A DNA stretch of 62,019 nt, counting the filler, from Sluysia triapertura (Eukaryota), in assembly GCA_046118255.1 (NCBI GenBank). It is 4 parts of 4 records of this genome, joined end to end, with 100 filler letters (N's around TTAATTAATTAA, not from the genome) between each part and the next. Parts side by side here need not be neighbours in the genome. Positions count along the whole stretch, not along the records: positions 27,935 to 47,010 come from JBJNIA010098660.1; positions 47,111 to 62,019 come from JBJNIA010244321.1; 2 more parts are not named here. One strand, written 5' to 3'. The first letter of the stretch is position 1. Each line of letters begins with the position of its first letter. Shown here piece by piece: positions 1 to 56,562 of the stretch. The notes below the pieces were generated by a model. The model did not search any database, was not told where the DNA came from, and worked only from the letters and a program-made list of their open reading frames with translations. The position numbers were made by a program, and so were the translations under genes.

Positions 1-1564
1 ACAATTAAGTGGGTGAAATAAAGAAATGAGAATATAGGAAAATAAATAAGGGAAAAAATATATAAATAAAAATAAAAGAATAGAATGAAAAATGAAAATG
101 AAAATGTGAAAGAGAATATCAGTTGTTGTATAATAGACTGATTATTTACAAAAACTAAAAGATTAAAGATTAAAAGACCACAAGATAGAGGATAAACAAA
201 GGCATTAAAGTACCACGATTAAGTCACATACGACAACAATATTATTTATCTGGGATATTGGAGGGAATAGCCTATGTAGATATTAAAGGAGGTTTCAATG
301 GAGAGTTTGGCACACTGGTGTGCTAAACCAGTAATATCTACCCTACGGAGGCCTAGTTTTTTCAGAATCCCAAGAACCAAGTACTCCAGCGACAAACGTG
401 TCAAGGGAAACCTGACATTTAAGTTATATTTGGAGCTTATCTCTCAGTTCGGAATTTTTAGATTACTATAGTCCAATATAGTCCGTGGCACTTTAGGCCT
501 GTATCCCAACATTAATATAGTTAGGTATGATCTATAAGTCGTATTGTTTGATGTAAAGTTGTTGTTAGAAGTGGTTTAAAGAATAGCGTTCCGAATTCAT
601 TGATTAATTTTAATTAAAGATGGTATGAAGTGATTGAAATTGTGAGTTTTCCTGAGATGTTTGTTTCACTGTTGAATCAAATAAACAGATTATTTGATAT
701 TTGTGTATCAGATAGTAATGTGTAGAGTTGTGATGTGTTAAATTGTAAAATTGTGAATTTTATTCTACGAAATGTGTGGATTTACTGAATTATGTTGTAA
801 TTTTGGTATTTTATCATTTAGTTTAGTCTTTACTATAATAATCTGAATATTATAAATGCTTGTTAATAAGATTAATTTGATTTCGTTTACAATTGTTATC
901 GAAAATTGAAGATTGCCATTAAAATTATGCTTTATTACTATTGTGGATTTTATTTTATTCTTTAGAAAATTATGATTAATGTTATTTCTTTTCTGATTAG
1001 ATTTATTATAAGAATTTTTATTTACATGTAAACAAAAGTTATTATAAAACTGATGCTTAAGGCACTCGAAATCTCTTTATGGAAAAGAACTTTAAAGTAG
1101 AAATAACATGAAAATTTTTTATTTAACATAAATGAAACGACTTTAACAATAATAGATGATACATCTATGATACTTCTCGAATGGTGTAAGCTCCGCAATA
1201 AAATTTAGAAGCAATAAAAATATTGTACACGAAACAAACAGAGATACAATTATAGAGAATTTTAACATCGTTGAGGATGTTAAGATCGGAATAGGCGATC
1301 GCATCAACAAGATAAAACATTAAAACAAAAGGACTATTGTGATGAGAATGAGCAATCGCGTGATTGCGATAAATCTTAGTGATATTTAGCCTCTTGTGGA
1401 GGTATTCACCTACAATATGAGTGCAGACATCATTCGTCTTCTTGATTATAAAATTATTTGAGATGCTAAGCTCGACAGTTAAATTGTGACGACATGATAT
1501 CCAAGTAAGATTAACATAATAATGATGCATTGTGTCGATAATGTGAACTGTATCAATAAAAGCA

Positions 1565-1838
1565 TAAAAAATTGAATCAGCATAAAGAATTGAACACCAA
1601 CTAACTCATCATCACTAATTTTAAAATTGTAAAATTTATTCGAGAGTCTGCCACAACGTGAAGGCTATGTTCCTTTTTACTTAGTGCCATGTTATTCGTG
1701 TACAAAAAGTACGAAACAAAAATATAAAAATTTGAATCAAAAATGACATTACACGCCTGAACACCAACTAACTCATCATCAGTAACATCAATCACTAATT
1801 TTAAAATTATAAAATTTATTCGGGAGTCTATCACAACA
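1565..1838 (+). repeat. Imperfect direct repeat, period ~167 bp
   Basis: tgaacaccaactaactcatcatca...ctaatttttaaaatt.taaaatttattcg.gagtct occurs at ~1591 and ~1758. Confidence 0.85.
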
Positions 1839-2369
1839 CGATAGTTATATTCTTTCTTAATTAGCTGACCAGAATGAGCTGGAACCAAAACACGTTCGGA
1901 CACAGTTTCTCGATGGAATTGTATATTCTTACCAACAAACGACGGTGTTGTGGCGATCCAAGCACTATTTGTATTCTCAACAAACCATCGGTAAAATTCA
2001 AATTTGCATAAGTATCGACTAATTACTTTGCTTCTGCAGCTTCAAGCATTGTGCAGTGTCTTAAACAAGCGCTTTGTAGTGTTCTTAAACCATTAGCGGT
2101 TTTCAATTTAGTTGGACTAAAATTTGACATTGTACGCAATCTACAATTAAATTGCGGTTTAGTAACAGAACCTGTTTTTCTGACTAACATTAAATCTATA
2201 ATGAACATTAAAGATTCTTTAAGAAGCTCACTTGGACGTATTTCTAATAGGACCATTTCTAATTCACCTAACTATTGGAGATTTATTCAAAATTTTGACA
2301 TTTAAAATATGTAAACTTTTGTTTACTTTTTTTAGAATTATATATTATTAAAACAAATTCGCATAAACT

Positions 2370-2825
2370 TTACATGATCGCAATTTCCCTTTCTAATTTA
2401 GCTGTTCGTCCACTTTGATTCATTTTGTCTAATTCCTCATTTTCTTGAAGTAACACTCGCATTCTGGTCATCATACGTTTACCAGTTTGACTCTCAGGTG
2501 TAAATTTCCAAGTTTGTAAATCATTTTGAACCTGTTCAAACTTTTCATTTACAGCTTTCATTTCCTTTTTAATCCGTAAAAATACTACATTAACAGCTGG
2601 ATCTAATTCCATACACTTAAAGTGTTGATTACGTGGATTTAACGAAGATTTCATATCATCAATTTGAGCCGAAAGATCAGCAATTTCTTGTTCTTTATGA
2701 GCTAAATTAGCTAAGAAAACATGTTCTAATTTATCTAATTAGCGATTTTTGATTTCAATCTTTTCTTTTAATTTTGTATTCTCTTTCATAAGAGCAATAT
2801 TTTGCTCTTCCAATGATAAATTCAT
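2370..2825 (-). pseudogene. WTAP: WTAP/Fl(2)d (m6A writer complex subunit) intronless truncated copy
   Basis: The translation LAHKEQEI..DPAVNVVFLRIKKEM..QNDLQTWKFTPESQTGKRMM..LLQENEEL..GRTAKLEREIA matches the WTAP core. There is an in-frame TAA at 2739-2741 and a premature TAA at 2370-2372. Confidence 0.85.
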
Positions 2826-6330: not shown

Positions 6331-6506
6331 TGTTAAACTTCAATAAATTGACTGACCGGGAATCAAATCCAAGACCTCTCGCTTCACAGCTCTGCAGTTC
6401 GATGCTCTGAGCACTGATCTGACAGCCCCGTCGTCTAACAATTTTATTTTATTTGTCAATTATACTAGCATTATTCTGGATGCCACTTTCGGCCTTTATC
6501 TCAACA
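6331..6506 (-). mobile_element. Solo tRNA-containing LTR, subfamily with an anticodon-loop insert
   Basis: TGTTAAAC...CTCAACA with the tRNA-like core. Flanks are catt/tatt (3/4 match). Confidence 0.85.
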
Positions 6507-7477: not shown

Positions 7478-10400
7478 TCATTTGTAACACTCCGTCGTAG
7501 TATAAACACTAACGGCAACAGCAGCAACAGCAGCAGTAGTGTTGTGATAAATTTCCGACCGAATACAAGCATTGTAAACTAGAGTAGCCTTAATGCGTTT
7601 TTCATATGAGTTACACAAATAGACGGCTCGACGAAGCACTTGGTCTTGTTGACTGATTGCTGAAGCTACGAGCAGACCCGCTCGACTGTCGATCTTGGCA
7701 CGCAGTTGGCCACTGGCAATAAGTGGACGTAGTTCAAGAATCAGTTCAGGGACGGTTGTATTGAAACAGTGAGCTATTCGGGACAAATGAGCACGATTAT
7801 AAGGACTGAAGTACTGTTTTTAACAAGAAAAGTAATTACATTATATATAACAATAAATATAAAATTCATTATTCTTAAAAAAGCATAAAATGGACTGACC
7901 GGGAATCGAACCCGACAAGTTCTCACTTCACAGTTGTGCAATTCAATGCTATGACCACTGAGCTATAAGCAATTTTGTTTTATCATTGTTCTAAACGACA
8001 CTTTAGGCTTGTAACTCAACATATCTCACCCACTTCAATTATGTTTCACCTCAAACATCTTGAGGATCATTTAATTCAACATCAGAAGAGTATTCGATAT
8101 GCGGGTTCACCAAATGTTAAACATCATGAAATGGACTGACCGGGAATTGAATCCGAAACCTCGCTTCACAGCTATGCAGTTCGATGCTCTGACCACTGAG
8201 CTATCAGTCCTGTCTAACAATTTTGTTTTATTATAGTCAATTATAACCTAACGTATAACACTATATAAATTAAAAAAGCCATTATTTCTAGCATATTAAA
8301 TATAAAAATCTGACATAAACACTGAAAAGTTGTAGTCGAAAACATAAACAAACCTGACAGAGAGCGCGATTTCGAATTTCGCGGAACAAAAACTCAACGT
8401 GATCAGCTAGGTAAATATCCAACAACAATTGATTTTTTAATGAAGCCATACTACGAAGACAATCTGCGTATTGAAAATTGTGGAAACTGTACAGAATATC
8501 ACGAAGACCGGGTTCATTCTCGAGAAACATCTTGAAGTGACTGTTATGAATCACGTTAGCACGCAGTGCGGCTCGATCAAACGACGCTAAAGCACAAATT
8601 GTACCATACAGAGCAACATCGTTGCCCGTGATAACATTTGAGTCTCCCATATGATCATGATCAGCCTAAATTAAATTTAAAAAATTCGATCAAACGCAAT
8701 TTTAATATATTAAGTTATTCATGAACTTTCGAAAAATATTTGTAATAGCAGTATAATTTTATTGTAATTTTTAAATATTCGAAACTATTGTAAACCATGT
8801 TGGTAATTATTCGACCACAATTAAAAACTCGTCTTTGTTGTTATAAACAAAGGTGCAAAGTGGAAGTTTTTCTGAACAAAAATAACTTTAATCAACTAAA
8901 ACTGTTACAAAAGAAAATGAATATTATTGCTAATAACTTTACTAACTTTCACTATATCCATTACATTATAAATTAACTACTTAATTACGATATTTTCCGT
9001 AACCATTTCTTTCTAATTATTCTTTCGAATAATTTCTTTCTTAGTTTTGGACCTTTTAAAGCTTTTTATTCGAAGATATTGAGAACACTAAAATATGTAA
9101 CTTTTTAATAATTTTATTCTTATATAATTGTTAAAATATTTACTTTAAAAAAAAGATTTCAATTACAATTGAAACAGGATCACTGTCACGAGGCTCATGG
9201 AAACATGTTAAACAAACTTATGGTGGCTCAACTTAAGACAAACATGCTGTAATTCACAAAACACATAAGAAAACTCTAACTTGAACCGAAATTCGATTAT
9301 GATCGAATCATCAAATAACACCATAAATAACAAAATAAAAGCCACATGTTTCATTATTTAATGCATTCACTAAATTCGTAAACAGATACAAATATAATGT
9401 GAAAATCTAATTGCTAAGTACAAGAGCACTCATTAATCAGAAAGCATTCAGCAAAATCCTTTATCCTTTTACACATCCTGTGTTTTAAACCGTTAACATT
9501 CAAGCAAGCCGTGTCAGCTTCGATTATAGCATTGTAGTAAACATTTCTGTACTACAATCATCCACAACATTTACATTTCAGACAGATTTTACTTTACACT
9601 TCAACACCAGACCCAAATTTTATTTTTATTTATGCTAAAGATCAAGTATGGATGAGAAAGGATTAGTTTAATATACGAATTAGAGATAACATTAATAATA
9701 AAATAATGATGATAATGATAATAATAATGTAAGGTTTCAATTTTGCAAGTAATTAAGTTTTACAAAATTTAAATAAATGAAATAAGGATTAATAGAATTT
9801 AATAATTGCAACAAAATTGAAAAAAGGACGGAATCCGTGTAGTTAAATTTTGTAAACTCTTATTTCAATTTTGTTATAATTATTAAATTTTATTATTCTT
9901 TATTTCATTTATTGTTAATTTAAAACATATATTTAAATTTTGTAAAACTTAATTATTCTTCTTGCATGGAAATATTGCAAAATTGAAATAAGGTAGAAAA
10001 CCCTATATGATGCCACAGTGGTGTAATAATTAATACATCTTTACGTAACGATTAATAATTATTTCACCTTAATGTTACCACTAAAAATTGTAGTACACTA
10101 GAACTCCCAAAACTGGTACTTTCTCAAACTGGACATCCTCAAAAGGGAACAACTCCCCAAAATGGAACATATTTGTAGCTTATATATTATGATGAAATAA
10201 TTGAAAAAACAGAAACTATGGATCAGGGAAGTAATGATTCCGAAAATAAATCTGAGGATTCTTGTTCAAATGTTCAAAATGAAAATTGTGAACAGATATC
10301 TCATTGGAGGATGCAGAGAAGTCAATGGAGACTGTGCTCAAATTCATAGAGAATAATCCTTGTTTTATAGAAGACTGCCTTATGCAAGCATGTGCATTGC

Positions 10401-13797: not shown

Positions 13798-13952
13798 TGT
13801 TAGACTTCATGAAATCATGAGAGGTGATCGAACCCGGGACCTCTCGTGCGCAGTTCGAATGCTTTACCACTGAGCTATCAGTCCCGTCTAACGATTTTAT
13901 TTTATTATAGTCAATTTTACCAAATGGCATTTTAGGCATTTTTAACCTAACA
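13798..13952 (-). mobile_element. Solo tRNA-containing LTR
   Basis: TGTTAGAC...CCTAACA with the tRNA-like core. Flanks are ataa/gtaa (3/4 match). Confidence 0.85.
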
Positions 13953-16359: not shown

Positions 16360-19269
16360 GTAAATGCTTAATATTGCTTAATAAATATTCCTTATATTTG
16401 TACATATTGTTGAAATATAGTCCTAAAATACTAATTAATTGGTCGAAGTCTCGGAATGTTCAACGAAAGGTCTTGTGTTCGAATTCCGGTAAGTCTATGT
16501 TATGAATCCTAACAAGACCCGTGTTTTTCCAATTTCTATAATTTTAAGCTGAAGTATTCTTTTATGAACAGTTAAAAACTTGTTTTTTTATTGATTTTTA
16601 AAAAAGCGAGAGCATGAATACTTAAGTGATTGGTTGATTTCTTGTTTGAAAAAAGGATTATCTCTGGAACATATACAAATAAAGTATGACGTATCTTCTA
16701 AAGATATAGTTTCATAAAAACTAAGATATATTTTTATGAAGTATAATGTACAATTTTTAAATTCAGAAGATCGGTACTTTGATTATATTCAAGTTAAAAT
16801 AATCATTCATACTTCAAAAAATACATAAACAAACATAAATCAACGAATAATATTCGAAATTTTTCTGTTTAAATTAATTAGTTTTATTTTTAGCAATGTT
16901 TTAAAAGTTTTATAATCTATGAACTTTAATCAAATTTGAAAATTGTATTTTAAGAATTTATTAACAAAATATTTGATCAGTGTAATTTAGCATAAAATGT
17001 TAATATTTTGAAATTGTGATTATAATTATTAATACATAATAACTGTACGCAAAATGTTATAATGCTTGTTTCAATAAATTATTATTATTATTATTATATT
17101 TATGTATTTAGAGACAAAGAATTAACAGAATAATTTTAAAATACATTATTTAAAAATCGATAATAACAATTTTGTGCATGAATTCGTTTCATATTAATTT
17201 TACTATTTATAGTACGCATAATATTATTAATAAACAGCTATTTAATAAATATTCGAATTAATAAATATTCGAAGTTTATAATATAATATAATATAATATA
17301 AACTTCCTTGGATTGTCTTTTTAATGTTATTCATATTTACAAATAATATTCATAATGTGGTTAAATAAAAGTTTTATATTTATGCTTATGTTTTGCTTAA
17401 ATATTTTCACATCATTAATGTGACTTTAACGATTTTAAACGGATTTTGTGTATTTTAATATATATATTATGTGTGACTATAGGCGAAAATTATGCCACAT
17501 TATCTGAGAAATTACTCGTCTAAAAATCGTATTCATATAACATTAATTTTTTAAAATAATGTTAACAAGTAAATAATTGTTTACTAAAGTTTTTGTAATT
17601 TTTTAAACTTAGGGTTTTTGTCGTGTGTATAATCATATAAATTTTCTTTTAATTAACTACACAAATCCATAAAAACACATGGTAGTTACTACTAGTTCTA
17701 ATGAATAATGAAGACCTATACCAAATAAGTAATTGGTTCGCTGAATTATGTTCATGATAATCTAATTAATTATTAGAAAAAATATAAAAATTTAGTTTTC
17801 ATTCAGGTCTATGTATCGTACTGAGTTATAAGTTGTACGTATTAAATTTTAATATTTTTAATTTGTTCAGTTTTTAATATTCCGTGTATGATTGGCTTCT
17901 GAAAAATAACAGCTTGTGCAACGAATTTAACGACAATTATATACCACTTTTAAATTATTTATATACAAAACATAACTTCAGTGTACTGTATTTGATTAAT
18001 ATTCGGTGATGGTCTACATTCTTTACGTTAAAAAGTCGACAGTATACTTCAATTTGTCATTTTTTTTCTTTGAAAATTGGAAAGAATTTATGTTTTAGCC
18101 TAATATTTTTTCTTAAATGTAAAAACATGATAAAATATGTTTGAGAAAAGTTTAATTTGTTAGATTTTGTAAATTACATATTTCTTAATTTTTTGAAATT
18201 AACAATTTATAGTTAATCGATACATTCTCTTTAATGTTGCAGCTTTAATATGTCATTTATTTTTAAAATGTTTCAGAAAATGTGCGAACACTGTTTAAGT
18301 AAATTTTTATAATTTTAAATATTTTCATCATTTATTATTAATAATTAAGAACATCTGTCATTGATTTTAGTTTTCATTTTGAAATATATTTTTGCTAATT
18401 CTTAATTTTATGATTGAGTCATTGTTACTTGCCAATTATCATTTTAAAATCATGTGTATAATTGTTCCATTAGTGTTTCATTAATTACATGTGATTAATT
18501 TACATGCGATAATATTTCTATTTTTATTTCGATTGCTTGAAATATGTTACATAAAGTATTTCTGCATTTCAGACATAGAGGATACTGATCAAATGACAGC
18601 AAGTGGATATGACCAATGCAGTTATGATCCAGTTGCTACAGCGACAAATAATCAACGTTCATCATTAGCTACTGCTAACAGTTGTTCATCTGGTGTTGCT
18701 TTTCGACGCCATGATTCTTCCGGCTTGGCTTCCAAAACCACGGAATCAAGTGATGACAGTATTAAACTAGGTGCCTTCCTAGTTGCTCTGTACCCATACG
18801 ATGCACAAAACCCGGATGAATTATCGTTCAGTAAAGGCCAGTTGATTCGACTCTTAAGTAAAGATGAACCGGATTGGTGGAAGGGATGCAACCAATCAAT
18901 TGGTGGTAGCTGTGGATTGTTTCCAGTTAATTATGTACGCAGATTAGATTGTCGTGGAAATTCTACCGATGCTAATTTACTAGAATCGATAACTGGGAGT
19001 CGAAATGAGGATGAATGTATTGATTTCGTATCAACCAAGGCCAATCAATATCCATCCGAATATTCAACTGTTACAGGGCGGCCTATTTCATGTAAAATAT
19101 TTTTTGAGTTTTTATTGTTTATACATAAGCAAAGTATTTTTTAAAATTATGTATAATTTTTTTTATTTCTAACTTTATTTCTTACTTTATTTCTAATTTG
19201 GTTATTGTTAATCAAACATCAGAAATGTTAATTTAATTATTTCATTTAATTTGTACTTGAAAATTGTTT

Positions 19270-33384: not shown

Positions 33385-34779
33385 ATGGCAAAACGAGTCA
33401 ATCTAGAAACAAAAGCTCAAAGTATTGATGAATCGCATTATGGTATTTCTGATCTGAATTATGTTATTAAATTAATGAAGAAAAATCCTAAATTAGACGA
33501 ATTAGTACAAAATACAATCAAATCCACAGTAGCACGGGAAAATTCAAAATCCAATACGTGTCACTATTTGACTAAACGTGAATCTATTACTAAGTATGCA
33601 AATGATGTAAATAGTTCGAAGCACGACGTGAACCACGTATTTAACGTTGACAAGTATACAAATGATGTAAATAGTTTCAAGTACGACGTGAACCACGTAT
33701 TTAGTGTTAACAAGTATACAAATGATGTAAATAGTCTGAAGCACGACGTGAACCATGTATTTAGTGTCGACAAGTATGTAAATGATGTAAATAGTCTGAA
33801 GTACGACGTGAACCATGTATTTAGTGTTAACAAGCATGTAAATGATGTAGACGCAATCCAAGCAATTTACGATGATACAATTAGCGTGGCCTATGTATAC
33901 AGTTCAAAGCGACGAGCAAACGAGCCAATCAATAGCACGTCGAACGAAAACGATATCAAAGTCAAGCTGGTGACTCCATCGAACACTACAAACGACAGGC
34001 TGGTTAAAAATGTCGGACAACACCAACACATACCAAGTAACAAACTTATATTTAGTAATATTAATATTAATTCTCATTGTATTACATATTATATCCTTTT
34101 TTGTTTTACTCATAGATCAATGCCTAACAGGACCGGAGCTATGTGGAGAGAAGCACAGCTGAGCAAGCACGCGAATGGTCATCTCTGTTACATACTAAAA
34201 TACAAAATTTTAATAAATGTATCATTTTATCCATTTTGTTATTATAATTTGTCTCTAAATTGTAAATTATATAATATAATAATAGACTTAGCTCATACCA
34301 ACAATAAAATAAATAAGAAATGTTTTAAATTAAACAAAGATCAAAGGTTTAACAAAACCTTTCATAAAGAATACTATAATAACGTTATAACTAAGTCGCA
34401 TGACGATAAAGTTAAAGTTGAGTTACCTAATGACAAACTGATCATTGCAAGCAATATTAAAACTGAGTTAAACACGATGAAGCTTTCTAACACGTCAAAA
34501 TATGTTAAATGTTCGTCTCATAACACAGAGATAAACAAACATTTTTTAAGTCTAAACTTACTACATCCCTCCATAGAATGGTATACAAACATTGACACTA
34601 TAAAGAAAACCAAGAGAACCGAAACAACCAACATTCAAGTTTTAAAGACTACATTATTGATGAAGCCACAATCTCCATCACACATCAATTACTCGGCAGT
34701 ACTGATCCAGAATTCCCACCACAATGAATGGAGACTTCAGCAAAATCAATCACAGAATCCCACATGCCGTTTTTCTTAG
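33385..34779 (+). CDS. 464-aa intronless ORF of unknown function with 20-aa tandem repeats, probably transposon-associated
   Basis: Listed in the ORF track. It is a long open frame in very AT-rich DNA, has no recognisable domain and abuts a gag remnant. Confidence 0.35.
   Translation: MAKRVNLETKAQSIDESHYGISDLNYVIKLMKKNPKLDELVQNTIKSTVARENSKSNTCHYLTKRESITKYANDVNSSKHDVNHVFNVDKYTNDVNSFKYDVNHVFSVNKYTNDVNSLKHDVNHVFSVDKYVNDVNSLKYDVNHVFSVNKHVNDVDAIQAIYDDTISVAYVYSSKRRANEPINSTSNENDIKVKLVTPSNTTNDRLVKNVGQHQHIPSNKLIFSNININSHCITYYILFCFTHRSMPNRTGAMWREAQLSKHANGHLCYILKYKILINVSFYPFCYYNLSLNCKLYNIIIDLAHTNNKINKKCFKLNKDQRFNKTFHKEYYNNVITKSHDDKVKVELPNDKLIIASNIKTELNTMKLSNTSKYVKCSSHNTEINKHFLSLNLLHPSIEWYTNIDTIKKTKRTETTNIQVLKTTLLMKPQSPSHINYSAVLIQNSHHNEWRLQQNQSQNPTCRFS
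33592..33849 (+). repeat. 60-bp tandem repeat, ~4.3 copies, alternating as a 120-bp higher-order unit
   Basis: The unit aagtat.caaatgatgtaaatagt...aag(c/t)acgacgtgaacca.gtattta..gt..ac is visible in register on consecutive 60-nt lines. Confidence 0.95.
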
Positions 34780-42010: not shown

Positions 42011-44373
42011 CTAATGCAATTTATAAATTTAAGTATTCCAAATAAAACAACTTAAATTACTCTATCTTCAAATATAAAATATAATTAGTACTTAGCAGAG
42101 TTTATAATACACTAATAATTTATTATTTAAACAAACAAGATAGCAATATTAACCAAAACTTTTCAATTATAATAAATGAAGATAAAAAAAGGAATATTTT
42201 TAAAAGTATTTAGTAATTAATAGGTAATCTTAAATTTTTTAGAATTTTACTACATTTATAGAAGAGAAATAAACTTCATCAAATTCAATTTTGAAATTAT
42301 GATTTTACAAAGAGATAATTTTATACTTTTCTTAACTTATCTTATTGAACTTTTATGTTACCATTTAAAACTAATTAATAGTTCTACTCACATTTATTCT
42401 AGAATGTATTTAATGTATTAAAGTTTTTAAAACTTGCACATTTTATATGTGCTTTAAAATTGTTGAATTATGTAAAGCCTAAATGAAAAATAAAATATGG
42501 TTGTTCTAAAATGGCTGCTTCTGATGAGTATCTAAGCCTTTAATAAAAATTCCTAATAAAAACTGTTGTGGTTACTTCGTTAAATATCAACAATTATACA
42601 AAGAATATATGTCAAGGGTAATTTATGATTTATATCTTACAAAAGACACAAATTATGGGATTTAGTCAATTATCTACGAAAAGTTTTCCTTAATACTTAT
42701 AATATATCAAACAATTTGCTACAGATGCGTTTTGTCGATCTTTAAGTTATTAATTCTTTTACATTAGGAGTAGATTATTTTTTTCTACGATTTTATTATA
42801 ATCTTAATCGTTAAATTTTTTAACACAGAAAGTATTCTCTTAATGTCAATTTTTCTAGGCTATTATCTTTATACAAGACAAGAAATTAATGATAAAAATT
42901 TATTCAATATTAATAAAACCAAATAATACAAAATTAGATAAATGCATTATATTGAATTATAATGATTAAAATTCAATTTGATATTTTAAAATTAAGGTTG
43001 ATCCAGGTGAATACTTGGATTTCGAAAATTGTAATGATTTTACAATTATAGCGTAAACTTAATACAAATGAACTTACGAATTCATGGAGCACATCAGGAT
43101 TAAAAGAATTGATTAGATTGAGATATCCTTGCCTGTCGGTTAAATTCTACTGATTCTTTTTAAAATAGCAATTGTAAAATCTGGAACAAATGTGTGCGAA
43201 TAGTCGTAATATTCCAAATAATCAACGATGAAAATTGTCGTATACCTTGTAAATTCGTACGTTAAAAAATTATAAAAAAATTTCGTTCTGGTACACTTTT
43301 GCTTAGAATTTTGTTACTTTTATAGTCTAGTTTTTTATAATGTAATAATCAAATGAATTCACCTTTATTTTATTTTAAATCGTTGTTTTATTATTTTTAA
43401 GTAATTAAACAATAATTTCATCCATAAATATGCTCATAAAAATTATCAGAATAACATTAAAAAGTTTAAACTTATTAATTATTCAACATTTGCAAATCAA
43501 TATTTGAATATTCCAAAATAATTTACAATTTAAAAATTTACAAAAACTAAATTAAAATATTAATATTAAAATATTTTTATATTAAACGATAAAATATAAA
43601 ATAAATTTAGAGTTTTACAAATATAAAATAAATTGATTTACATTTTTAAAAAAACTCTAGATAAAATCACTTGACAAATTATTATAAATTAGTATTGAGA
43701 CTTTTCTGAAACTCTGCTAAGAAATAAAATAAAAACGAATATGAATATGTTTGATTATATCAGAATAAATATTGCATAATCACGGTTATCATAATTTACA
43801 AATTAAGGATCGCAAAATAATAAAAAGAATTAATATCATGTTGCGATCCCCAATTATTTATACGAAAATTCTTCATATAAATACATGTATACACAACAGT
43901 ACTACGGGATTTCCCGTTTAAATAGTAGGTTTTTCAAACCTATAACATTCATATATAAATCTAATGACACTTCTGTTAAGCACATCTTACAGCTACATTA
44001 ACTAAAAATAATAACGTTGTGGTTGTTTTAAATTACACAAATTATATTTTTAATTTCGATCAACTTCATAAAAATTACAATAGCACATCAGAAAGGTTTT
44101 ATACATCAAGAAAAATGGTAAGAAGACGTGATATGAATCAGTGATTATTGCTATTTCTGGTTAACAATGATTATGCCCCTCATAATATTTACAAAATTGA
44201 AGGTAGAACTGATATCGTTATTGTTATTATTCACTCCTAGCGTATGTTGGTCAGAAAAGGCATTTTTCTACCTTTTAAAATTATTAACAATAATTTAATA
44301 ATTAAATTAGACTGAAATGTCTTATAATTATTATAATTAATTTTTTATTATTAGTCATTCTTTATTCACAATG

Positions 44374-44537
44374 AATGCCTAATGTGCCATTTAGAATAAT
44401 GATAGTATAATTGACTATAATAAAATAAAATTGTTAGATGGGGCTGTTAGTTTAGTGGTCAGAGCATCGAACTGCATAGCTTTGAGGTAAGATGATCGGG
44501 TTCGAATACTGGTTAGTCCATTTAATGAATTTTAACA
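44374..44537 (+). mobile_element. 5'-truncated tRNA-containing LTR (insert subfamily)
   Basis: tgttagatggggctgttagtttagtggtcagagcatcgaactgcatagct...gggttcgaatactggttagtcca...taaca. Confidence 0.8.
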
Positions 44538-45260
44538 CAATATATTCTTAATATTCACAGAATAAATACATATTGTCAGTTGCTCATCTGAATGTTTGAT
44601 GAGCAAACAAATTATGTTAATTCAATTGAAATGATAGAACTAGAAATAGAGTTCACAGAAATGAAATGAAGTTAAACATTTAGCAACTATCAAACCAGAA
44701 ACATGACATGTAACAAATGGAGCTGTACTGAAGATATTAATTATACAGCAAGAGTAACAATCTTTGGTTAGATTATTATGAAACCCGAACAATTAAAACA
44801 ATGGAAAAGGCTTTCTGAGATGTAAACATTACTGAACAAAATAATAAAGTAATTTACTCTTTATGTATCCAGAATTTAACTAATTGTGATATTTTTTTAT
44901 TTCAGGATCATGACAACCAGTGATTTTGCCATTATGTATACAAAATGGGCTACGCCTTTTATCAAATGTATTTGTAACTTAAACCTTAGCATTTTAGTAA
45001 ACAAATGTTTTCACATGTTTTTAAATTCTCTTGAAGTTTTCAAAATTACGAATATTTTATAAAATAAAATTGGAATTATCAAATAAAAAGATTAAAATGA
45101 TATTTGTGATAAACATAAATTTAAATAATAATAGTCCTATGATCAACTTCAATAATCAATACCGACAAGAGTGTCTTTCTCAAAGCTAACTTAAGAATGG
45201 ATAAAAATCAATATATTTTAAAAATAAATTGAGTAAGGTGTCTCCCACAAAAATAACTTA

Positions 45261-45419
45261 TGTTAGACTTCGTAAAATGGACTGACCGGTGATCGAACCC
45301 GGGACCTTCGATGCGCAGTGCGAATACTCTACCACTGAGCTATCAGCCCCGTCTAACAAATTCATTTTCAATGTATTCAATTATACTACTTGGCACTTTT
45401 TAGGCCTTTTACCCCAACA
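45261..45419 (-). mobile_element. Solo tRNA-containing LTR, 4-bp TSD CTTA
   Basis: ctta-TGTTAGAC...CCCCAACA-ctta, 159 bp. It is a close reverse complement of 54593-54750. Confidence 0.9.
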
Positions 45420-47010
45420 CTTAAAATTGTCCTTTCTGTACAATAAAATTAATAAAAATTACGTTGAACATGAATCGTGGCTCTATTGTTTGTGTTGTGC
45501 ATTAAAATTTTTAAGTTTTTCATTTTATACTTTCTCATCATCCATTCAATCCTAAGTTTCACAATCAAACACTTTCTCATACAAATCATCAAAACCTCTT
45601 TGAGAATAAGACTGACAATGAATTTGTAAAATAAAATCTATGTTCTAACAAACTTCATTAGGTACAAAACACAAAAATTTGATTTATTGTTAATTGAAAA
45701 TAACAATCAACAATACTGTTAACATACATAAAAATAATGAATTTAATTTCACTTTTTAGAATTTAATTGATTTTCGATTTTTCATACCCAATTTCCTTAT
45801 GGAAAATGTTAAAGGTTCTTATTTTCAAACAAACCATTCTACAAACATTTCAAACTCATTTCTAGATTCTCCTCTTTCATAGCAATTATCTCATATTCAA
45901 TTCATTATATTTGTATCATTCTAAGTATAAAAAAACTCAACATTTCATAATTAAGAATTAATTAAAATTTGTCTTTCCTCAATATTAAAGCTTTCCTTAA
46001 ATGAACTCGGGCAAAGCATATCTTTTCAAAACAAATACACACAAAGTTTTACATTTAACATAGCATTCCGCATTCAAAAGTTATTCACAAAAACGTACTT
46101 TTTAAGTAAAATTTTAATTAATTAATCTAATTTTAGACAAAATCTTATTATATATGCAAGTATTTTCTTTGAAAGAACTTAATCTACTTACAAAATATCC
46201 GATGAGTCGGTTTATACTGTAATTGGACATGTGCTATGAGGATTTTTATAACCTGTACTTAACTTAAAAATTTACTTACACCTTACTGTGTATGACAAAA
46301 TTATTTAATTCGCTTATAAGTCTTTGATTAATTTATATTACAACCCTTTACAAATTAATTTAATTTACGCAACCCGTATTAAGGTGTTGCTTTAGAAAAT
46401 AATATTTTAGCAAATTTTAATACTAATATAATTCTTATCAAGTAATAAATTAATAAAACTTAAAGTCTATTAAACACACGACAAAAACATGAATTACAAA
46501 AATTGGACTATAATATAAATAATTAAGTTAGTAAAAATTCAACCTTAGTTGGTTTTGTGTGATTTTACAGTTGGTTACGCAAGCCGTATTAAGGTCTTGC
46601 ACGAAAAAATAAAATGATTTTTAGTGTATTTTAAGTTTCCTATATTATAGTGAAACTGAAAACTTATAAAATAATTAATTACTTGTTCAACATGGAATCT
46701 GATAAAAATTCTTCTTTAAAATTTTCAAATCTTTAAATCAAAAAACTTCAAATCTTTTTCCTAAAATCAAAAATTTGGTTGTCTGCTATCTAAATGTTCA
46801 TTCTGAAAATTTTATAAAAAGCTTACCTATTTATAGAAATATTTTTGCAATATGACTTCTAATAAAGATTTTTAAAATAAACAAAATATTTTCTAAAATT
46901 TAAACAAATGAATTTTTTACTACTTTAAAATTATTAATTATTAATTTTAATTTTGTTATTAAAATTATAAATTATTATTTAATATAACTATTTAATATAT
47001 TAAAATAACT

Positions 47011-47110
47011 NNNNNNNNNNNNNNNNNNNNNNNNNNNNNNNNNNNNNNNNNNNNTTAATTAATTAANNNNNNNNNNNNNNNNNNNNNNNNNNNNNNNNNN
47101 NNNNNNNNNN
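47011..47110. other. Artificial contig linker
   Basis: Same N-TTAATTAATTAA-N structure as 14750-14849. Confidence 0.95.
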
Positions 47111-49150
47111 TAATCAACCATTTAAGGAAATAGTTAAAAAATTAAAGGATATCGAAAGGTCTCGGAACAAAAGAAAAAGATAATGTAAGTTATGAAAGTA
47201 ATAGTAATTTTAAGGATAAAAACTTTGAATATAATTCAAAGAGCGAATCTCCTAATATAAGTTTAAGAATTCTTTTGAGAATAATAATTTTAATACGAAG
47301 AAAAATAAATTTCGAGGAAACAATATGAAAAACTCAAATAACTTCATTCCAAGAAGCAATTATCGAAATCCAGGAAGAAATACGACAGGATTTGAAAGAA
47401 GTTATTCAAATAATATTGGCTCAAGAGAATATGAACAACGTCCGTTACCTAGATTGCCGAATAATAAACAAAATGATAACCTTTTCGAAAGGATCAAGAT
47501 CAAGTTATAATAACATGAACTACAAGACAATGGCCAATAAAGGAGAATTAGTGACATAGTGGTAAACAAGGACACTGTGCTTGGAATAGTAAACAATTAA
47601 AACCCGAAACTAATCAAGAATTGAATAAAATCAACAAAATTCTCCAAAAAGGATGAAATTTGATAAAGGTAATAACAAGGGACAAATAAATTGCTATTAT
47701 GATGAAGAATACGTAGATTATAGATATGAAAAATATCCAAGAAGATTAACAGAAGAAGAGGAAGAAATGTTACAAGAATGCCATAGAACAAAATTAGAGA
47801 GTATCGATATTAATGAAGAAAGCGAACCAAGAAGAAACAGGAAGATGAAGATGAAACATTTATTAATTATCTACACGAATATTTTATGAAACTTTTAAAG
47901 AAAAAGAGGAATGAATTAATAGAGAAACAACAGAGAATAACCAAAAGTGCCCAAGAAATGGAAGAAGAAAAGAAAAATGTTGAAGCAATTATAAAAAGAT
48001 GGGATAAAGATAATATAGTAAATGAAGAAGAGGAAAAGGAATTGATACTATCCAAATGTTCAAGAAAAGTCAATTAATGATATATTTTCGGATTTAGAAC
48101 CAATAATCATTTCAGGTAACGAAAATTTAAAGCCGATAATTGTTTCAAGTAATGAAGATAATTTAAATAGAGAAGAATTAAATACTCCAGAGCCAAAACT
48201 AAATGAAGATATAAAAACGTTTCTTGCAGATTTAAAAGAAGATAAAATCATTGATAAAAATTTAAGTAAAATTCTCGTTTTGGATTTAGGCATGTTTAAT
48301 GTACAAAGCATTAAACCAAGTTTAGTTTTATTAAGTCAAGCAAGCAATCATCATCAGTACAAATCAATAAAATTATTACAAAAATTGCATCAATCGAAAG
48401 AGTAACAGATCCAAAAAGTTAATGAAGATTAATATATCATTAAATGGACTTATCAATATTTTTATGGAATTACTAGTGATTACATTATTCCAGATTTTGA
48501 AATCATTAAAATGAATATTTGATGTAGAATTATATTTTAATAATAGATATCTGATACCACAGACTTCTTTAATGATTTCGGTTATCATTTAGGAAATTAT
48601 GAAGAAATTGTAAAAGCTATTACTACATGTAAAACTTCCGAATGTGATAATAATTGGCTAGAAAATATGTCTGATGATAAAGTCAATGACTCCCCCATTC
48701 ATTTCTGAGGCAATTAATAGATGAAAATGGCATTGAAAGTACAAAAAATAATGATATGATAGAGAAACCTGATTATACGGTGGATATAAGAGCAATCCAC
48801 ATATTGAAACTAGTGACAAGGAAACAAATACTATCAAATGATGTCCTGGTCGCCCAAGAAGGTATTATATTAATACACCTACTCAGACTCAGGAATTCTA
48901 TAGATTTAACCAAAATTATAGATGAAAATGAAGAAGATCAAATTGAATTTGATACTAAAGGCGTAATTTATGCGTTACTATCCAATAAGTTTACTAATTT
49001 TGATAAGTATAAGAAATTACTACCTAGGTTAAAAGATTACAAGAACTCCGCAGTAAAATTAATGAATCAATTAGAAGAAAAGTATAAGGATAAGGATGTT
49101 GGTGATTTCATAGAGAATGGACAATATAAATTAATTGTAAACAAGTAGGT
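47111..49150 (+). pseudogene. Disrupted K/E/N-rich coding-like tract, probably a decayed retroelement ORF
   Basis: A chain of overlapping + strand ORF fragments with strong purine bias and no splice pattern. Family not recognised. Confidence 0.4.
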
Positions 49151-49264
49151 TATTAAAGGAATAAATAAGGCATATATACTATATGCCTTAAACATAAATG
49201 TAGCACATACTATATTTCAATATCATAAGAAGTTTTAATCACTAACCATAATGTTATAAAAATT

Positions 49265-49550
49265 ATGGATTCTTGTTATTACGGAGCTAAACAATTTGCA
49301 AGCGAGATTAGATTAGTTTTCGTGCCTGCTTTTTTAATTTATGAAATCAAAAAATTTCAATCAAGTCCGGATAATTATAAACCCCAAGTTAGCTATGTTA
49401 TTCCTTTCAAAACACGTCAAGACGATCGCTCAACTCTACAGTCTGATGATCTGACGTCCGATGATACAAAAGTAATTTTAGCTTATTATTTAACTGACGA
49501 ATTAATTTTATGTAATTATTTATTTAGAATATCGGCATAACAATCACAAG
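49265..49550 (+). CDS. Possible upstream exons (49265-49471, 49528-49550), phase-compatible with the EndoU exon at 53944
   Basis: A GT-AG 56-nt intron and a 23-nt exon ending AG|GT would join as ...ITR|INDSSGFEH. Similarity to the EndoU N-terminus is weak (PDNYKPQV only). Confidence 0.3.
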
Positions 49551-50755
49551 GTATATTCGAAAGATACTTAACATTAACCTTAAAAATTTTGATTTTTGCA
49601 TTTTTTGTAGAAATAGATCATTGTGTTGTTTACCTTTCTTTTATAATCAATCTAAATTATATTACTCAACTAGAGTTGTAATAAAGTTTAATTGTTATTT
49701 TAACTCTCACATAATAATTTTTAATAAAATAATTAAAATTTTAATTGTCACAATTGTAATTTTTAACCTTAATAACATTAAAATATTACAATCGAAACAA
49801 TGATGATCTTCAAATAGAAGAAATAATTAAAAAGAAAATATGTAAAGAATGCAACAAAAAACACTATACGAAACACTATTGTGATGTCTAATAAAGAAGA
49901 GTAGGGACCAATATTAATATCAAATGGATTAATAATACAATGTGGAAAATATATTATAGAAACAAATTATCAAGGTATTTACTTATCAGAAAAAATAATC
50001 TTACAAAGGTAGTCGATTCCAAAATTGAATGCTTATTTCAACAATGAAATAGATTGATTGATTAAAATCCCATAAAACAGGTTTGAGTGTAACAACAATA
50101 ATAGAATCAAATATTATATATTTTAGTATGATGACGCTTGTAGTATGGTAATAATTGAGATTATTATAAGAATATGAAATTATTAGAAGAATTATTATTA
50201 CAATGGAAATTATGATGACAACTGTATTTTATAACTGTACATTATGATTGTGTGTTTTATATGATCAGATAACTTGTTTAGTGTTTTGTTTGTGATGGCT
50301 TGCGTATGTGTTTGTGTGGCGTTCACTACAATGAAGTTACGTACATGTTCAAACAAGAATATTTAAGTAAATTGAAGTAGCAAGATTCTGCAATGAATAT
50401 CAGTTAAGCAAATCCGAACAAATATTTAAAGAGGAAGTATACAAACTTAAGTTAAAATAACTCGAGTGTATTGAACATAAATATAAATGTAAACTTTAGG
50501 TTTATCACTATTTCTTACATTTTATGATATCTTGTAAAAAATGAAAAAATAATTCAAATTTTTGGTATGTTTCCTTAAAGTGTTTAGATCACTTCGATTT
50601 ACTGCATCAAATTAAATTATAGCGCCTTAGGAAATTATATTAAAATTGTTTTTCGAATTAATCCAAAACAAGACATTCAGAGCCTTAGAAGTTGAAATAA
50701 AACCTAACCTTAAATTTAATGTTTCATTAAAATTGAAGTTTAAGATAGTATTGAT

Positions 50756-51571
50756 ACTAGTGAAGGTGAACAATTTCGTAAAATTGCGCAATGCACATTA
50801 GTCTTAATACAAAATCTTAATTACAAATATTCTGAATTAGAAGCATTAAGAGACCTTTGGGTAATCCAATAATAAGTTTCAGTTATTAAAACACATAATT
50901 CTTAATTTCAATGTGCTACAATATCTGACTAAAAGCATTTCTCAATTTCTGAATTTTTTCTCATTCGAGTATCTTTTCTTGTACATTAACTTTTAAAACA
51001 AATATAACAAGAAAAAGAGAAATTTTCTGAAATTTAATTTTAAAACAGTCGACGATTTTTAACTGTATTTAAAAGTTTGTTTTACAAGAAATCTCAAAAT
51101 AATTTGAAGGTGTACTTAAAATATTTTCTAATTTGAAGCAATCTAAAGAAATTCGATATTGTTTTTCGAGTCTTCGTCCATATCAGCATTTTTACATTAG
51201 TTTATATATTATATAAGTTGCGTCTATTTAGGTTAAGCTTAAAAAGAACTAAAAATAATATACATTTTTTTAGACAATTTAATATATTGCCCCTAAAATC
51301 ATTGAAATAAGATAAGTTAATTTTTAGTATTAAGTTTAATATTTAAGTAATCGTTTTGTCATTTTTTTATCGTTTTTATACACATTGTATTTTAATGGCT
51401 GGCTGAGTCGTTATTTTTGTTCTTTATATATATATATTTTATGCACTAATTCGTTTTTATAAAAAAATTAACTGTTAATTGTTTATATTTGTTGATATTC
51501 GAGTTTTTATTAATTAATGATTTGCAACATATTAACATTTGTTTTAAGTTTGCCGACTCACCTTCACTAGT
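50756..51571. mobile_element. Non-autonomous DNA transposon with a 14-bp perfect terminal inverted repeat
   Basis: ACTAGTGAAGGTGA (50756-50769) and TCACCTTCACTAGT (51558-51571). The TSD is unclear. Confidence 0.6.
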
Positions 51572-52341
51572 TGTAGCTTGTGGGCATTGATCAAATAATA
51601 TTCGTATTTATAATTGCAAAAACCTACAAGATTGCCTACCACTAAGATCATAAGTCATCAAGTGTGGGCGAATCTATTAAATTATTTTTGAAATAATAAG
51701 TAGTACTTTAGCATGAAGCATTCGCAAAATGAATTATAGTATAGCCAAAAGAAAGAAAATTAATTTATGTAAATAATAATGCATATATTAAAATAATTTA
51801 ACTGTAACAGAAATTGATATTAACCGTAAAATAGTTATAGAATAGAATCAAAAATTAATTGGATATAATATAATATTGATAAAAAATAATCTAAATTAAA
51901 AATTCAATGTCCCTTTAATTATGTTATTCGTTGATTATAGCATTGAATTTCCTTTTTTCGTGCATGAGTTGTTGTCCTGATCACAGGGACTTAAATATTA
52001 AAATCAATAATTAAAATGTACAATCCATACTCTTATCAGAGACAAGTTGAAAACTAACTCCAACGAATATAATTAATAAACTATCTTTAGTAAAAGGAAG
52101 TTTTTCTACAAAGTAAAACAAAATGATCTTCAAAACAATCACTACAAAATAAAATATATTTACAATAATCACTACACATCCATAAGAAATTAACATAACC
52201 TAGAGTTGTAAATTTAATAAACAAATATTTAATTACGATAAATTTAAAAGAAGATATTAATTAATGTTAATAGGTAATATTAAAAATAAGTTTTCATTTT
52301 TAAAAAAAATATATTTTAAATATAAATTTAATTAGCATTTA

Positions 52342-53888
52342 CAAGGTAACCAAGCGAGTACGCAATCGTTAATTTTAGAATATAAGAAAAATGAAAATAC
52401 CGAAGAAAAATTTTTGGAGTACCTTCATATAAATACTACGAAGTAAAATTATATCGCATAAGTTCAAATTTCGAATCAATCGATAGAACTTGATTAATAC
52501 ATGAAACTTTTTTTATAAAACTAATGGCGTAAAATGAATAGAAAACAAGTTAATCAACAAATTCATTGAAAATCAATAAAGTAGGTTCTCATTGTGTTTT
52601 CCTTCACTTCCAATAATTTGTCTGAGTCGATCTTCAAATGACTTGGTAGTACTTTCACGAATTTCCGGTTGAATTTCCTTGATATTCTGCTCAATTCGTT
52701 CATATAATTAATTGACGTTTTGTAGATCTTTCTGAAGAAGAAATCACAGGGATTGATGTCGGGAGAATATTGAGACCAAGTGATACCTTTTCCATTGAAT
52801 TTCTCACCACTCGATTGTCAAAGTATTCGTTCAGCAAACGAAAACCTCCTAGTACTCGATGAGGTTGGGCTCCATCATGCTTGAACCAAAAACTGCAAAT
52901 GAAGTGAGGGGTATGACTTGGTCATGTAGAATCTTCCAATAAATGTGGGGCCAGTAGGCATTTTTGCTGATAAGGCACACCAGACAGTTACTCTTTTAGG
53001 ATGCTCTATCCACAAATTCTCTATTTCTATTTATTTACAAATCTTTCTAGTTAGAAGTGCTCTTCGTCGTAAACAGAATCTTTTAAAATCAATTTCTCTT
53101 TCCTTCATCGTTATCATTCTGTTGGCTGATTCCAAACGCCTGTTCGATGATTGTTGACTGATTGGCTGGTTTACCTGTATCTTGTAAGGAGATAACAATA
53201 AATCCAAAGACAGTTCGTTGAAGCGATCATCTCGTAAGTCCTAGTTTCTGTGATGCCTTTCGTGTTGAAGTGAATGGATTGTGACGGACGAATTCACTGA
53301 CTTTCCTGATGTTTTATTAAGTCCTGTTAGTCATTTCCGCTGATTTCATTTACTTAATATCATCTAAGACACATCCGGTTTCACAAAACTTGTGGGTTCT
53401 AAATTAAATTAACAAGTTTACCTACCTTTTAACAGTAGAAGAACTCAATATATGCGTTTTTTCAAATGTTTTCATGTTGTTTCTTGTTATATTAAAACCA
53501 TGAAAACGCTACATATAACACTGTATTGTTTCATTGTAACACTTTTTAAAGGAAAACTGAGAGATATAGATGCGTTCAGATTTAATGACAAAAGTAAAAT
53601 ATAAACAAAATTTCGACGAAGGGCAAATACACAAATTAAAACTTTTTTCTAACATTTCAAAAAAATTTGTTTTCTATTCGACTTTAATCATTAGTTTTAT
53701 AAAATAGTTTTATGTAGTAATCAAGCTCTTTCGATTGACACATAATTTGACTCTAAATTTGAACTTCGGCAATAAAATTTTGTTGGGAAATTATTTTCGA
53801 AAAGTTTTTTCTTCGGTATTTTTGCCTTATATTCAGAACTTAAGCTTTTTGCAGAAATTAGCAATTGGTTACCCGCTGGGCCAACTTG
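52342..53888 (-). mobile_element. Tc1/mariner-superfamily element with ~200-bp TIRs, TA target sites and a decayed transposase
   Basis: 52342-~52530 is inverted relative to ~53690-53888, with TA on both flanks. The minus strand reads WFKHDGAQPHR..WSQYSPDINPCDFF..FEDRLRQII. Confidence 0.85.
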
Positions 53889-53943
53889 TATATTGTATTC
53901 AAGATTAACTACAATTTTATGATAAATGAATATATTAATTTAG

Positions 53944-56562
53944 AATTAATGATTCTTCCGGATTTGAACACGTTTTTGTAGGAGAAATTAAAAACAATCA
54001 GTTGATAGGTTTACATAACTGGATTCGCTTTTATATTGAGGAAAAAAAAGGTAATATCGATTACAAAGGATTTCATTATCGTGGCACGGTAATATGATTA
54101 ATGCATAATATTTGTAATTGTTGTTTCAATAAAATAAACAAATTTTTCAAAATAATAGTTAACTTTCAATATAAGAATGCAAGATACATGGAGAATAATT
54201 AGCGCATTTTGAATTTTAGTATACCTACAGAAATACAATAGAATTTTCACAGCAATGTTGTAAATTGTTTCACATTACTTCAACTTTTAATTGCTTCATT
54301 AGAGCGAGTAGGTTTTACAATACAATACCCTTTCAGTAATATCGTCTTCATAATGTTAATCAGCTTATGAATATGTGTCCTCAAAGCAGTGTTTAAAATA
54401 GACCTTCAACTTCTTTTGTAGCATTAATTAAATTGTTTTTTATAAATTGATTTACAGATATAGAATAATATTTTGTATTTACTACTATCAAAAATGAAGA
54501 CTAATGCACTAACTTAATGCTGCTTTAAAATGTATAATGCAATAAATAACAATATTACTTATCAAGGTATTAATACGAAATCCAGATAATTATGTTGGGG
54601 TAAAAGGCCTAAAAAGTGCCAAGTAGTATAATTGAATATATTAAAAATGAAATTGTTAGGCGGGGCTGTTAGCTCAGTGGTAGAGCATCGACTGCGCAGA
54701 CGATGGTCCCGGGTTCGATCCCCGGTCAGTCCATCTTACGAAGTCTAACAATTAAGATTAAAATCTCTACTGTCAGTAGGAAAAGAAAATAATATGCTCA
54801 AACAACTGGAAAAAGTATGAAGTAAATTGCATTCTCCTTATAATTTCTGTACAAATAAAAAATTTATTCCACATAAACTTATAAAATTCCTCAAGCTCAT
54901 TATAGTGGGTCTCCACATTTTTATGAGAAATACCATAACTAACCATTAATCTGATTTATTCAAAATGAATAACTTTTAATTATTATCTATCATTTTTTTC
55001 AGAAATAGTCAAAGTCTAATGCTAATTTTACTCTACTATAAAATTCTAATAAATAATATAGGAATCAACATCCAGCGTCAAGCCAGGGAAAATCGAAATA
55101 CATTAAGTTGGGATCTGCAAAACTCGAAAATGATGTTGAATGCACTTGACCAACAAAAAATTTCAATAGGATTAATTTAAACAAAATGTGATCAATACTT
55201 TGCGTAATAAACCCGTGTTTGCAGATTACGAGTTCACACATTTATATTATTATTAGTAGTATTAGATTTTTACTATCTTTTATCAAATTATAATAAATAA
55301 TGTTTTTTGGACTTTATGGTCCACCTAGAAAAGATAATAAATTTAAATAGCTATTAAATTATTTGTTATTAATTTAATTAATTGTATCAAAATAGTTATT
55401 TTTAAACAGATAATATATTGAAAATATAAAATTTTTGAATATTTACGCCAAAAACAAAATTAAAGTCAATCAATATTACACTTGGCCAACAAAAAATTTC
55501 AATAGGATTAATTAAAACAAAAATAATTGCAAATTCTGGTATTATCTGTATAAATAAAAATGTAAATGTTATTTTGTTCAAAATCTTAAATTTCCGAAAG
55601 TTAACCGATTGTTTTGAAATTTTGACACAACGTGTGTTTTCTCTTTTCCTTTCCATTTAACCACACTGAGCCTTAGCAACGAGTGGCCGGGTACAGCTAA
55701 TTTATCATACGTGTGAAGAAATATTATATACCAGAGGTGGCCAGACTTAACCCCAGACTTAATCATAAAAATCCAAAACTTCGGGAGCCGCAAAGAAAAA
55801 TTTTTGTTAAAATCAGCATAGTAATTAAAAAATTTTTTATCATTTTTAAATGTAGTTTGCACAAAATAAATAAAAATTTTTTAAATTTATTCAATAGATT
55901 TTTTGTATGATTCAAATTTTGAAAAATTTTTACATGTATATTTTTATTAATGATAAAATTTCGAATTTTTAAGTCTTGGCGAGAACCGCACTGGGAAGGT
56001 CAAAATCATATAAAAATTACTTGTACCACGGATATATTTATACGATTTCTAATATAATATTTTTTCGATAAAGCATATTGTTCAAATATATAAATTTTTT
56101 AAAAGTATATAACATATAACAGTGATTACAATGGTTGTTGTTTTGAAGTTAAGTCAATATGATTGATGTAAATTTATAAACTTTGCATAAAAATGAAGAA
56201 GCTTTACTAATTTCCTCAATACTGGAATAAAGATAAATATTTGAAATCCAACTTAGGATAGGATTTATTTTTAAAAAATTGATTGTCATTTAACAATATT
56301 GGTAATAATTTCATTTTAGCCATCTGAAAGTGACAACCCTAGAATAATAACAATAAAATTTGCTTGGCGTGGTATACCTAAACATAAAGGTAGTTCTTTC
56401 ATTGGCACATCACCGGAATTCGAAATGGCGTTTTACACAGCACTTCATTTTTGTGATGTTCCACTTGATACGGAAGTAACACTAGCCGGTTATCATCTGT
56501 CATTAAAACATTTCAAAAAAAATGATAAAATTGAATCATCTTACATGATATGCCATGATTAA
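53944..56562 (+). CDS. ENDOU: EndoU/XendoU/PP11 poly(U)-specific endoribonuclease, last two exons 53944-54088 and 56320-56562
   Basis: Neither exon is in the ORF track. They translate to [40 protein letters not shown] and [27 protein letters not shown]...TAA. The two catalytic His and the Lys motif are present, with AG/GT boundaries in phase. Confidence 0.92.
54593..54750 (+). mobile_element. Solo LTR containing a tRNA-like gene, 4-bp TSD ATTA
   Basis: atta-TGTTGGGG...GTCTAACA-atta, 158 bp. Confidence 0.9.
54663..54733 (+). tRNA. tRNA-like sequence inside the LTR (Cys-like, abnormal anticodon arm; probably a pseudo-tRNA acting as a Pol III promoter)
   Basis: GGGCTG/CAGTCC acceptor stem, A box TAGCTCAGTGG with a GCTC/GAGC D stem, and T arm CCGGG-TTCGATC-CCCGG. 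The anticodon region is ACTGCGCAGA versus ACTGCAGA in tRNA-Cys. Confidence 0.6.
55143..55525 (+). repeat. ~45-bp direct repeat pair
   Basis: cacttg.ccaacaaaaaatttcaataggattaatt.aaacaaaa occurs at ~55143 and ~55479. Confidence 0.85.

Follow-up and report, generated by a model that had tools for sequence, protein, structure and literature searches.

Repeats with an internal tRNA-like unit in Sluysia triapertura as probable solo LTRs of a miniature retrotransposon of the Helenus type

A stretch of 62,019 nucleotides from Sluysia triapertura (assembly GCA_046118255.1), composed of four parts joined end to end and called the window here, contains a short repeat with a tRNA-like unit in its interior. 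The typical unit is 155-176 bp long, starts with TGTT, ends with AACA, and is bordered by 4-bp target-site duplications (TSDs). These repeats are likely the solo long terminal repeats (LTRs) of a miniature, non-coding LTR retrotransposon of the Helenus type, the full-length form of which would be preserved in a decayed state at 8293-7873. [quoted passage not shown] The mechanism is not new, since elements of this kind were published in 2024 (PMC10886601). The host phylum and the abundance are the new or unusual features.

A search of the window with nhmmer, in which each copy was used as a query, returned eight copies, the number also reported from the sequence alone; seven are strong, and the one at 16408 is weak (best E 1.5e-5). 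Copy A (45261-45419, minus strand, 159 bp) and copy B (54593-54750, plus strand, 158 bp) are solo LTRs that start with TGTTGG and end with CTAACA, and the exact 4-bp duplications claimed for them were confirmed: CTTA at 45257-45260 and 45420-45423 for A, and ATTA at 54589-54592 and 54751-54754 for B. Copy B appears to sit in an intron, between two stretches coding for XendoU. The partial matches reported at 13798 and 6331 were also reproduced. Copy C (13798-13952, minus strand, 155 bp) is flanked by ATAA and GTAA and copy D (6331-6506, minus strand, 176 bp) by CATT and TATT, each pair agreeing at three of four bases; both are single LTRs. Copy H (16408-16514, plus strand, 107 bp) is very decayed, with TGTT...AACA ends and flanks agreeing at two of four bases, and lacks any recognisable A or B box. 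These five copies, in which both ends are callable, form the TSD count; copies F, E and G, each with one decayed end, were left out. The earlier generalisation of TG...CA ends with TSDs across the copies does not extend to 44374 and 8115, where no call can be made because the left ends are decayed. The first of these is copy F, a member of the long subfamily described below (44360-44537, plus strand, start approximate).

In 200,000 random draws from the window, which has a GC content of 26% (N runs excluded), 4-base flanks agreed completely in 0.97% and at three or more positions in 9.6%. The observed set of 4/4, 4/4, 3/4, 3/4 and 2/4 has a probability of about 2e-5, with the miss included. 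Variable duplication lengths, which the sequence-only reading had set against its own proposal, were not found: among lengths 3 to 6, the match in A to D peaks at 4 and is worse at 3, 5 and 6, where A and B match poorly (best 3/5). The description of A and B as near-identical was not borne out, their identity being 91.9% by blastn and 93.6% over aligned columns. The idea that A and B are the inverted ends of a single 9.5-kb transposon was rejected because a separate TSD surrounds each of them and their outer flanks are not the same (CTTA for A, ATTA for B).

As had been claimed, the tRNA-like unit lies about 70 nt inside the element, and no A-rich tail is present. In both A and B it begins at element base 71, with the A box at base 78 and the B box at 120-121; 17 bases then lead to the AACA end. 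The unit of A occupies 45278-45349 (minus strand; B box at base 121) and is followed by a run of four T, and that of B occupies 54663-54733 (plus strand; detected with ARAGORN and Rfam). Their Rfam tRNA scores are 47.2 and 40.5 bits. An A-box pattern is present in 6 of the 8 copies and a B-box pattern in 7. Three of the eight exceed the Rfam gathering score and one is called by ARAGORN (tRNA-???, anticodon not assignable), so that tRNA gene counts would be inflated by this element, which repeat pipelines would mislabel as a short interspersed element (SINE). In the predicted stems, 80.9% of cells pair, compared with 31-45% when the alignment is slid. Covariation in the fold was no better than in shuffles (340/500) and the fold z-scores range from -1.1 to -2.5, which gives no evidence for selection on structure. 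Since the anticodon arm also differs in length between copies, a functional tRNA is unlikely to be made from the unit, judging by its sequence. Visual comparison suggests a likeness of the D and anticodon arms to tRNA-Cys of Schmidtea and of the T arm to its tRNA-Ala(CGC); three exact element motifs are absent from the part of the Schmidtea tRNA supplement available (PMC7962491). An 8-base inverted repeat (45351-45358 and 45261-45268) encloses the tRNA-like unit together with the LTR end; in 4/4 folded copies it is predicted to lengthen the acceptor stem, with no covariation support. The inner TGTTAGAC...GTCTAACA unit was considered as a mobile piece of its own and rejected, as no depth step occurs at its inner edge in the sequencing run X1 described below. 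Exact-pattern scans of metagenome, genome and viral contig collections gave 0 matches.

The evidence for a full-length form comes from copies E and G, which lie on the same strand, 93 bp apart, and span about 420 bp in all. Copy E (8115-8293, minus strand), the probable 5' LTR, has an intact right end and about 45 decayed bases at its left, so that 8293 is approximate. Copy G (7873-8021, minus strand), the probable 3' LTR, has an intact TGTTG left end, two internal deletions and a decayed right end, so that 7873 is approximate. The internal region between them (8022-8114, minus strand) is non-coding, single-copy in the window and without any run of four T. Two bases past the end of copy E lies the PBS-like site TGGTGAACCCG (8102-8112, minus strand), which is complementary at 10 of 11 positions to the 3' end of Schmidtea tRNA-Trp, CGGGCTCA, with CCA added (PMC7962491, in part). 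The Trp PBS of Gypsy-32_NVi and of Helenus-2_SyJa differs at the same single position within the 11 (PMC10886601, in part). It can be seen that this site is the only one among 123,154 window positions and adjoins the one copy with a same-strand neighbour; the chance of such a site at any of the 8 copies over 7 offsets is about 1e-5, or 5e-4 to 3e-3 when 50 tRNA types are allowed for. At the other end of the spacer, the PPT-like tract GAAGTGGGTGAGATA (8022-8036, minus strand) abuts the 3' LTR. It holds 12 purines in 15 bases, 7 of them G, compared with 6-10 purines and 0-3 G before the five other left ends tested; comparable purine-rich 15-mers number 142 in 122,940 (0.12% background). From the same-strand neighbours, the Trp PBS-like start and the purine-rich end of the spacer, E-G is probably a decayed LTR-PBS-PPT-LTR element. 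The earlier count of eight thus stands as a number, while the counting of 7873 and 8115 as solos does not, since they are probably the two LTRs of one element. E-G seems to lie in an intron, between two PCI-coding stretches of a CSN1 gene; the 93-bp spacer is unlikely to be an exon of CSN1, because the PCI match continues across the gap (model position 35 to 32-83).

An explanation of how such an element could have spread begins with the A and B boxes, which are present in the LTRs. RNA polymerase III (Pol III) would initiate in the 5' LTR, close to its tRNA-like unit, and would not stop at the short T run; the transcript would cross the spacer and the left part of the 3' LTR, which is free of T runs, to terminate after the second tRNA-like unit. 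The tRNA-like part would then be the R region. Sense-strand runs of four T upstream of the tRNA-like unit are lacking in 7 of the 8 copies, while runs of at least four A occur there in all; the scarcity of T runs weakly favours read-through, and because the copies are related it counts about once. The PBS-like and PPT-like sequences suggest that the primers of a helper reverse transcriptase would be tRNA-Trp of the host and the purine tract. In view of the ends, the TSD length and published relatives (PMC10886601), a Gypsy-type integrase acting in trans would insert the product with a 4-bp stagger. Recombination between LTRs, as in established LTR biology, may then have deleted the spacer and left one LTR between the duplications.

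The family is not uniform. In the tree, copies A, B and C split from D, E, F and G at 95/97 support, and the long subfamily (D, E, F and G) carries additional bases both in its left part and within the anticodon arm. The family was amplified in at least two waves, the older long form being followed by the short form (A, B and C). Abundance was estimated from one sequencing run, X1 (window share 0.82), which is a possible source of the window and is therefore not independent of it. On 45101-45580, 11,018 X1 contigs were placed at 80% likeness or more, part of which belong to flanking repeats: 1,695 at 99 or above, 3,405 at 95-99, 3,808 at 90-95 and 2,110 lower. Their summed depth, which is inflated by overlapping contigs and is not a copy number, reaches 0.77-2.45 million within copy A and falls steeply at both ends: at 45261 it drops from 1.6 million to 40,500, and at 45419 from 772,000 to 4,200. 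The eight long X1 pieces listed have a depth of 16-22, and the raw depth ratio in X1 is 27,000-100,000. Scaled to 735 Mb of X1 contigs, the density in the window corresponds to 36,000 (A-like) to 96,000 (all) copies. Depth and window density together suggest a rough copy number of about 10^4 or more, in outline supporting the very high-copy family with a younger subfamily proposed from the sequence alone. Agreement among the 174 loose ends at 45261 is only 0.44, which is what a mixture of many unrelated flanks should give. Copy A is bordered on either side by sequence that is itself repetitive in X1 (45197-45260 and 45485-45580, with summed depths of up to 9,300 and 200,000), which points to nested insertions. 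One X1 contig (depth 20; joint of 45422 to 45261) carries two young copies on the same strand about 34 bases apart; no Trp PBS was seen by eye in this spacer.

Several points weigh against a Helenus-type origin. There is only one two-LTR candidate, which is decayed and belongs to the older subfamily, with none for A, B or C. Its outer ends are decayed and no TSD is callable round the pair. A same-strand neighbour within 270 bases occurs in 11% of random placements, and the screen for PBS-like sites used tRNA-Trp alone, from another species (Schmidtea), while the PPT threshold was set after the site was seen. As to the pairing of E with G, G best matches E (85.5%), but E scores higher in nhmmer to D and F than to G; the informative sites of the sister test are divided 3:3:3 and the fork of D, E, F and G is open in the tree. 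A sister relation of E and G would fit such a star-like old subfamily but is not shown by it. A helper Gypsy was not seen in the window reading frames scanned. In X1, the share of depth running on into unlike sequence is 0 and the 15 joints listed of 24 have depths of 16-37, so that the young subfamily showed no interior at high abundance; this absence is a weak argument, since contigs collapse repeats. An empty site was also sought in X1, and several contigs do connect the two flanks of A without the element, though 160 or 180 bases are missing from them, with 34 other letters in the 180-base gap, where a clean empty site would lack 163. These contigs, which may be alleles or paralogues, fit an insertion of A into an older repeat; they neither confirm the TSD nor exclude an excision footprint. 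The lack of a visible A, B or C interior, the single-copy depth of the listed joints and one footprint-like contig at A are the basis of a different account, in which the young 159-bp subfamily has no two-LTR form and an LTR-sized unit was moved directly by an integrase-type enzyme, through cut-and-paste or a one-LTR intermediate, to tens of thousands of copies. It would be a mini-transposon of SINE-like scale derived from the end of a retrotransposon, an outcome that we regard as unlikely. The main point of interest is whether a two-LTR form exists at all in the young subfamily.

That footprint-like contig (depth 17) joins 45260 to 45421, which could be read as the two TSD copies less one base, and would also suit a non-autonomous DNA transposon (a miniature inverted-repeat transposable element) moved through cut-and-paste by a Ginger2-like transposase related to integrases, with the tRNA-like part as a passenger and E and G as chance neighbours. 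Nearly all copies are indeed single units, and the TGTNR ends and 4-bp TSDs of Ginger2, which inserts into AT-rich targets, occur here as well (PMC2836005, in part). The resemblance does not extend to the terminal inverted repeats (TIRs), which measure only 4-6 bp compared with about 50-180 bp in Ginger2, nor to the RTATAY target, from which TATA is expected and found in 0 of the 4 best TSDs (PMC2836005, in part). The unit is asymmetric, and its PBS and purine tract are left unexplained. No long-TIR relative with a Ginger-type transposase, the second sign that the sequence-only reading had set against itself, was seen: 13 of the 62 reading frames between A and B were scanned and none matched a Pfam transposase or integrase. 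This explanation is accordingly held to be quite improbable. Very improbable, too, is an origin of the solos from a long autonomous Gypsy with a tRNA-bearing LTR, in which the 93-bp spacer would be a single internal deletion. [quoted passage not shown] The proposal that is largely refuted, and to which hardly any weight is given, is a tRNA-derived SINE inserted by a long interspersed element and extended at its 5' side. It would account for the short length, the very high copy number and the tRNA-like unit with A and B boxes. The 70 conserved bases that precede this unit would not be transcribed from an internal Pol III promoter, there is no tail, and the ends are sharp on both sides. A tRNA SINE (SINE2) would begin with the tRNA head and finish in a tail that is A-rich or made of simple repeats, unlike the present unit. 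The TSDs of such SINEs are variable and longer, whereas those observed here are fixed at 4 bp.

Stretch I (452-511, minus strand), detected with nhmmer, matches the LTR over no more than its left 50-60 bases (77% to copy B over 52 bases, E 2e-4), has no tRNA-like unit, and then continues toward position 1 for about 330 bases that are richer in GC. Neither a right end nor a TSD or PBS was found for it. It could be a truncated or interrupted copy, or the LTR of a tRNA-less relative or of a helper. An inverted repeat within it was not significant (173/1000 shuffles).

The spliced genes of the window are WTAP, CSN1, an SH3/RhoGEF gene, a Ulp1 protease and XendoU. The WTAP frame is 83% identical to WTAP of Dugesia japonica and none of the remaining 14 matches exceeds 56%; judging from this single protein, the host is probably a triclad planarian. 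The named CSN1 matches lie at 35-53% and do not place it. The WTAP-like sequence at 1601-2738 (minus strand) has an in-frame stop after 122 residues and is possibly a decayed or processed copy, with a 180-base duplication nearby (1611-1684 and 1791-1864). Broken frames at 52563-53240 (minus strand) contain the motifs HDGAQPH and SPDINPCDF, which we take to be of a Tc1/mariner transposase; they gave no Pfam match. Other broken frames, rich in charged residues, extend over 47146-49540 (plus strand) and may represent a decayed mobile element or gene. They had no Pfam match above the cut-off, and the ESM Atlas returned none for the frame 48690-49145. A 60-base tandem repeat of about 4-5 copies (33587-33886) lies within a 489-codon open frame.

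Among published systems, reports of a tRNA-bearing LTR element in planarians were not found in a search made mostly in abstracts, with Repbase and most subscription journals outside it. A term search of the portion of PMC13034038 available gave 0 matches, and SINE/5S and SINE/7SL expansions are the only ones mentioned in main-text passages of the Dugesia genome preprint, the supplements of which may bear on this. The closest flatworm element is ta-TRIM of taeniid tapeworms, which is also a TRIM with TG...CA LTRs and many solo LTRs. It has a Leu primer, an LTR of about 198 bp, an interior of about 590 bp, a 9-base PBS, a 15-base PPT and 4-bp TSDs in 52 of 57 cases, and was not found in other flatworms by its authors; unlike the present element, its LTR has no tRNA-like unit mentioned in the part of the paper available (PMC4558846, in part, for all of these). 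Cassandra and Ajax are TRIMs that likewise hold a Pol III small-RNA unit within each LTR, but that unit is derived from 5S rRNA, and the TSD of Ajax is 5 bp (via PMC10886601).

Helenus (TRIMp3) comprises TRIMs whose LTRs each contain a tRNA-like unit and which have a PBS, a PPT and, in animals, a 4-bp TSD; its Pol III transcription is itself unvalidated (PMC10886601). The Sluysia element shares the TG...CA LTR in which an A/B-box tRNA-like unit is followed by a short T run, the short non-coding spacer between PBS and PPT, the solo LTRs and the 4-bp TSD of the animal members. Its sizes fall within the ranges of animal Helenus (LTR 104-323 bp, interior 43-621 bp), its total of about 420 bp is under the limit of about 1.3 kb, and its Trp primer is that of Helenus-2_SyJa and Gypsy-32_NVi (PMC10886601, in part). 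The window ratio of 8 LTRs to 1 interior falls inside the Helenus range, in which counts run from 65:90 to 190:9 (PMC10886601). Two element motifs had 0 exact matches in the part of the Helenus supplement available, in a comparison of exact motifs only (PMC10886601), and the element probably has an origin separate from the known Helenus, as that paper expects; it would probably represent one further case in which an LTR element independently acquired a promoter from a tRNA. The largest Helenus family, in zebrafish, has 5,575 LTRs (PMC10886601), a maximum that the rough copy number of 10^4 or more may exceed, the published count being the stricter. With a copy about every 8 kb, in many cases within introns, the family could rank among the most abundant Helenus families known. 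Its host also differs, since Platyhelminthes lies outside the six animal phyla of Tables 1 and S1 and would, if this identification is correct, join them (PMC10886601).

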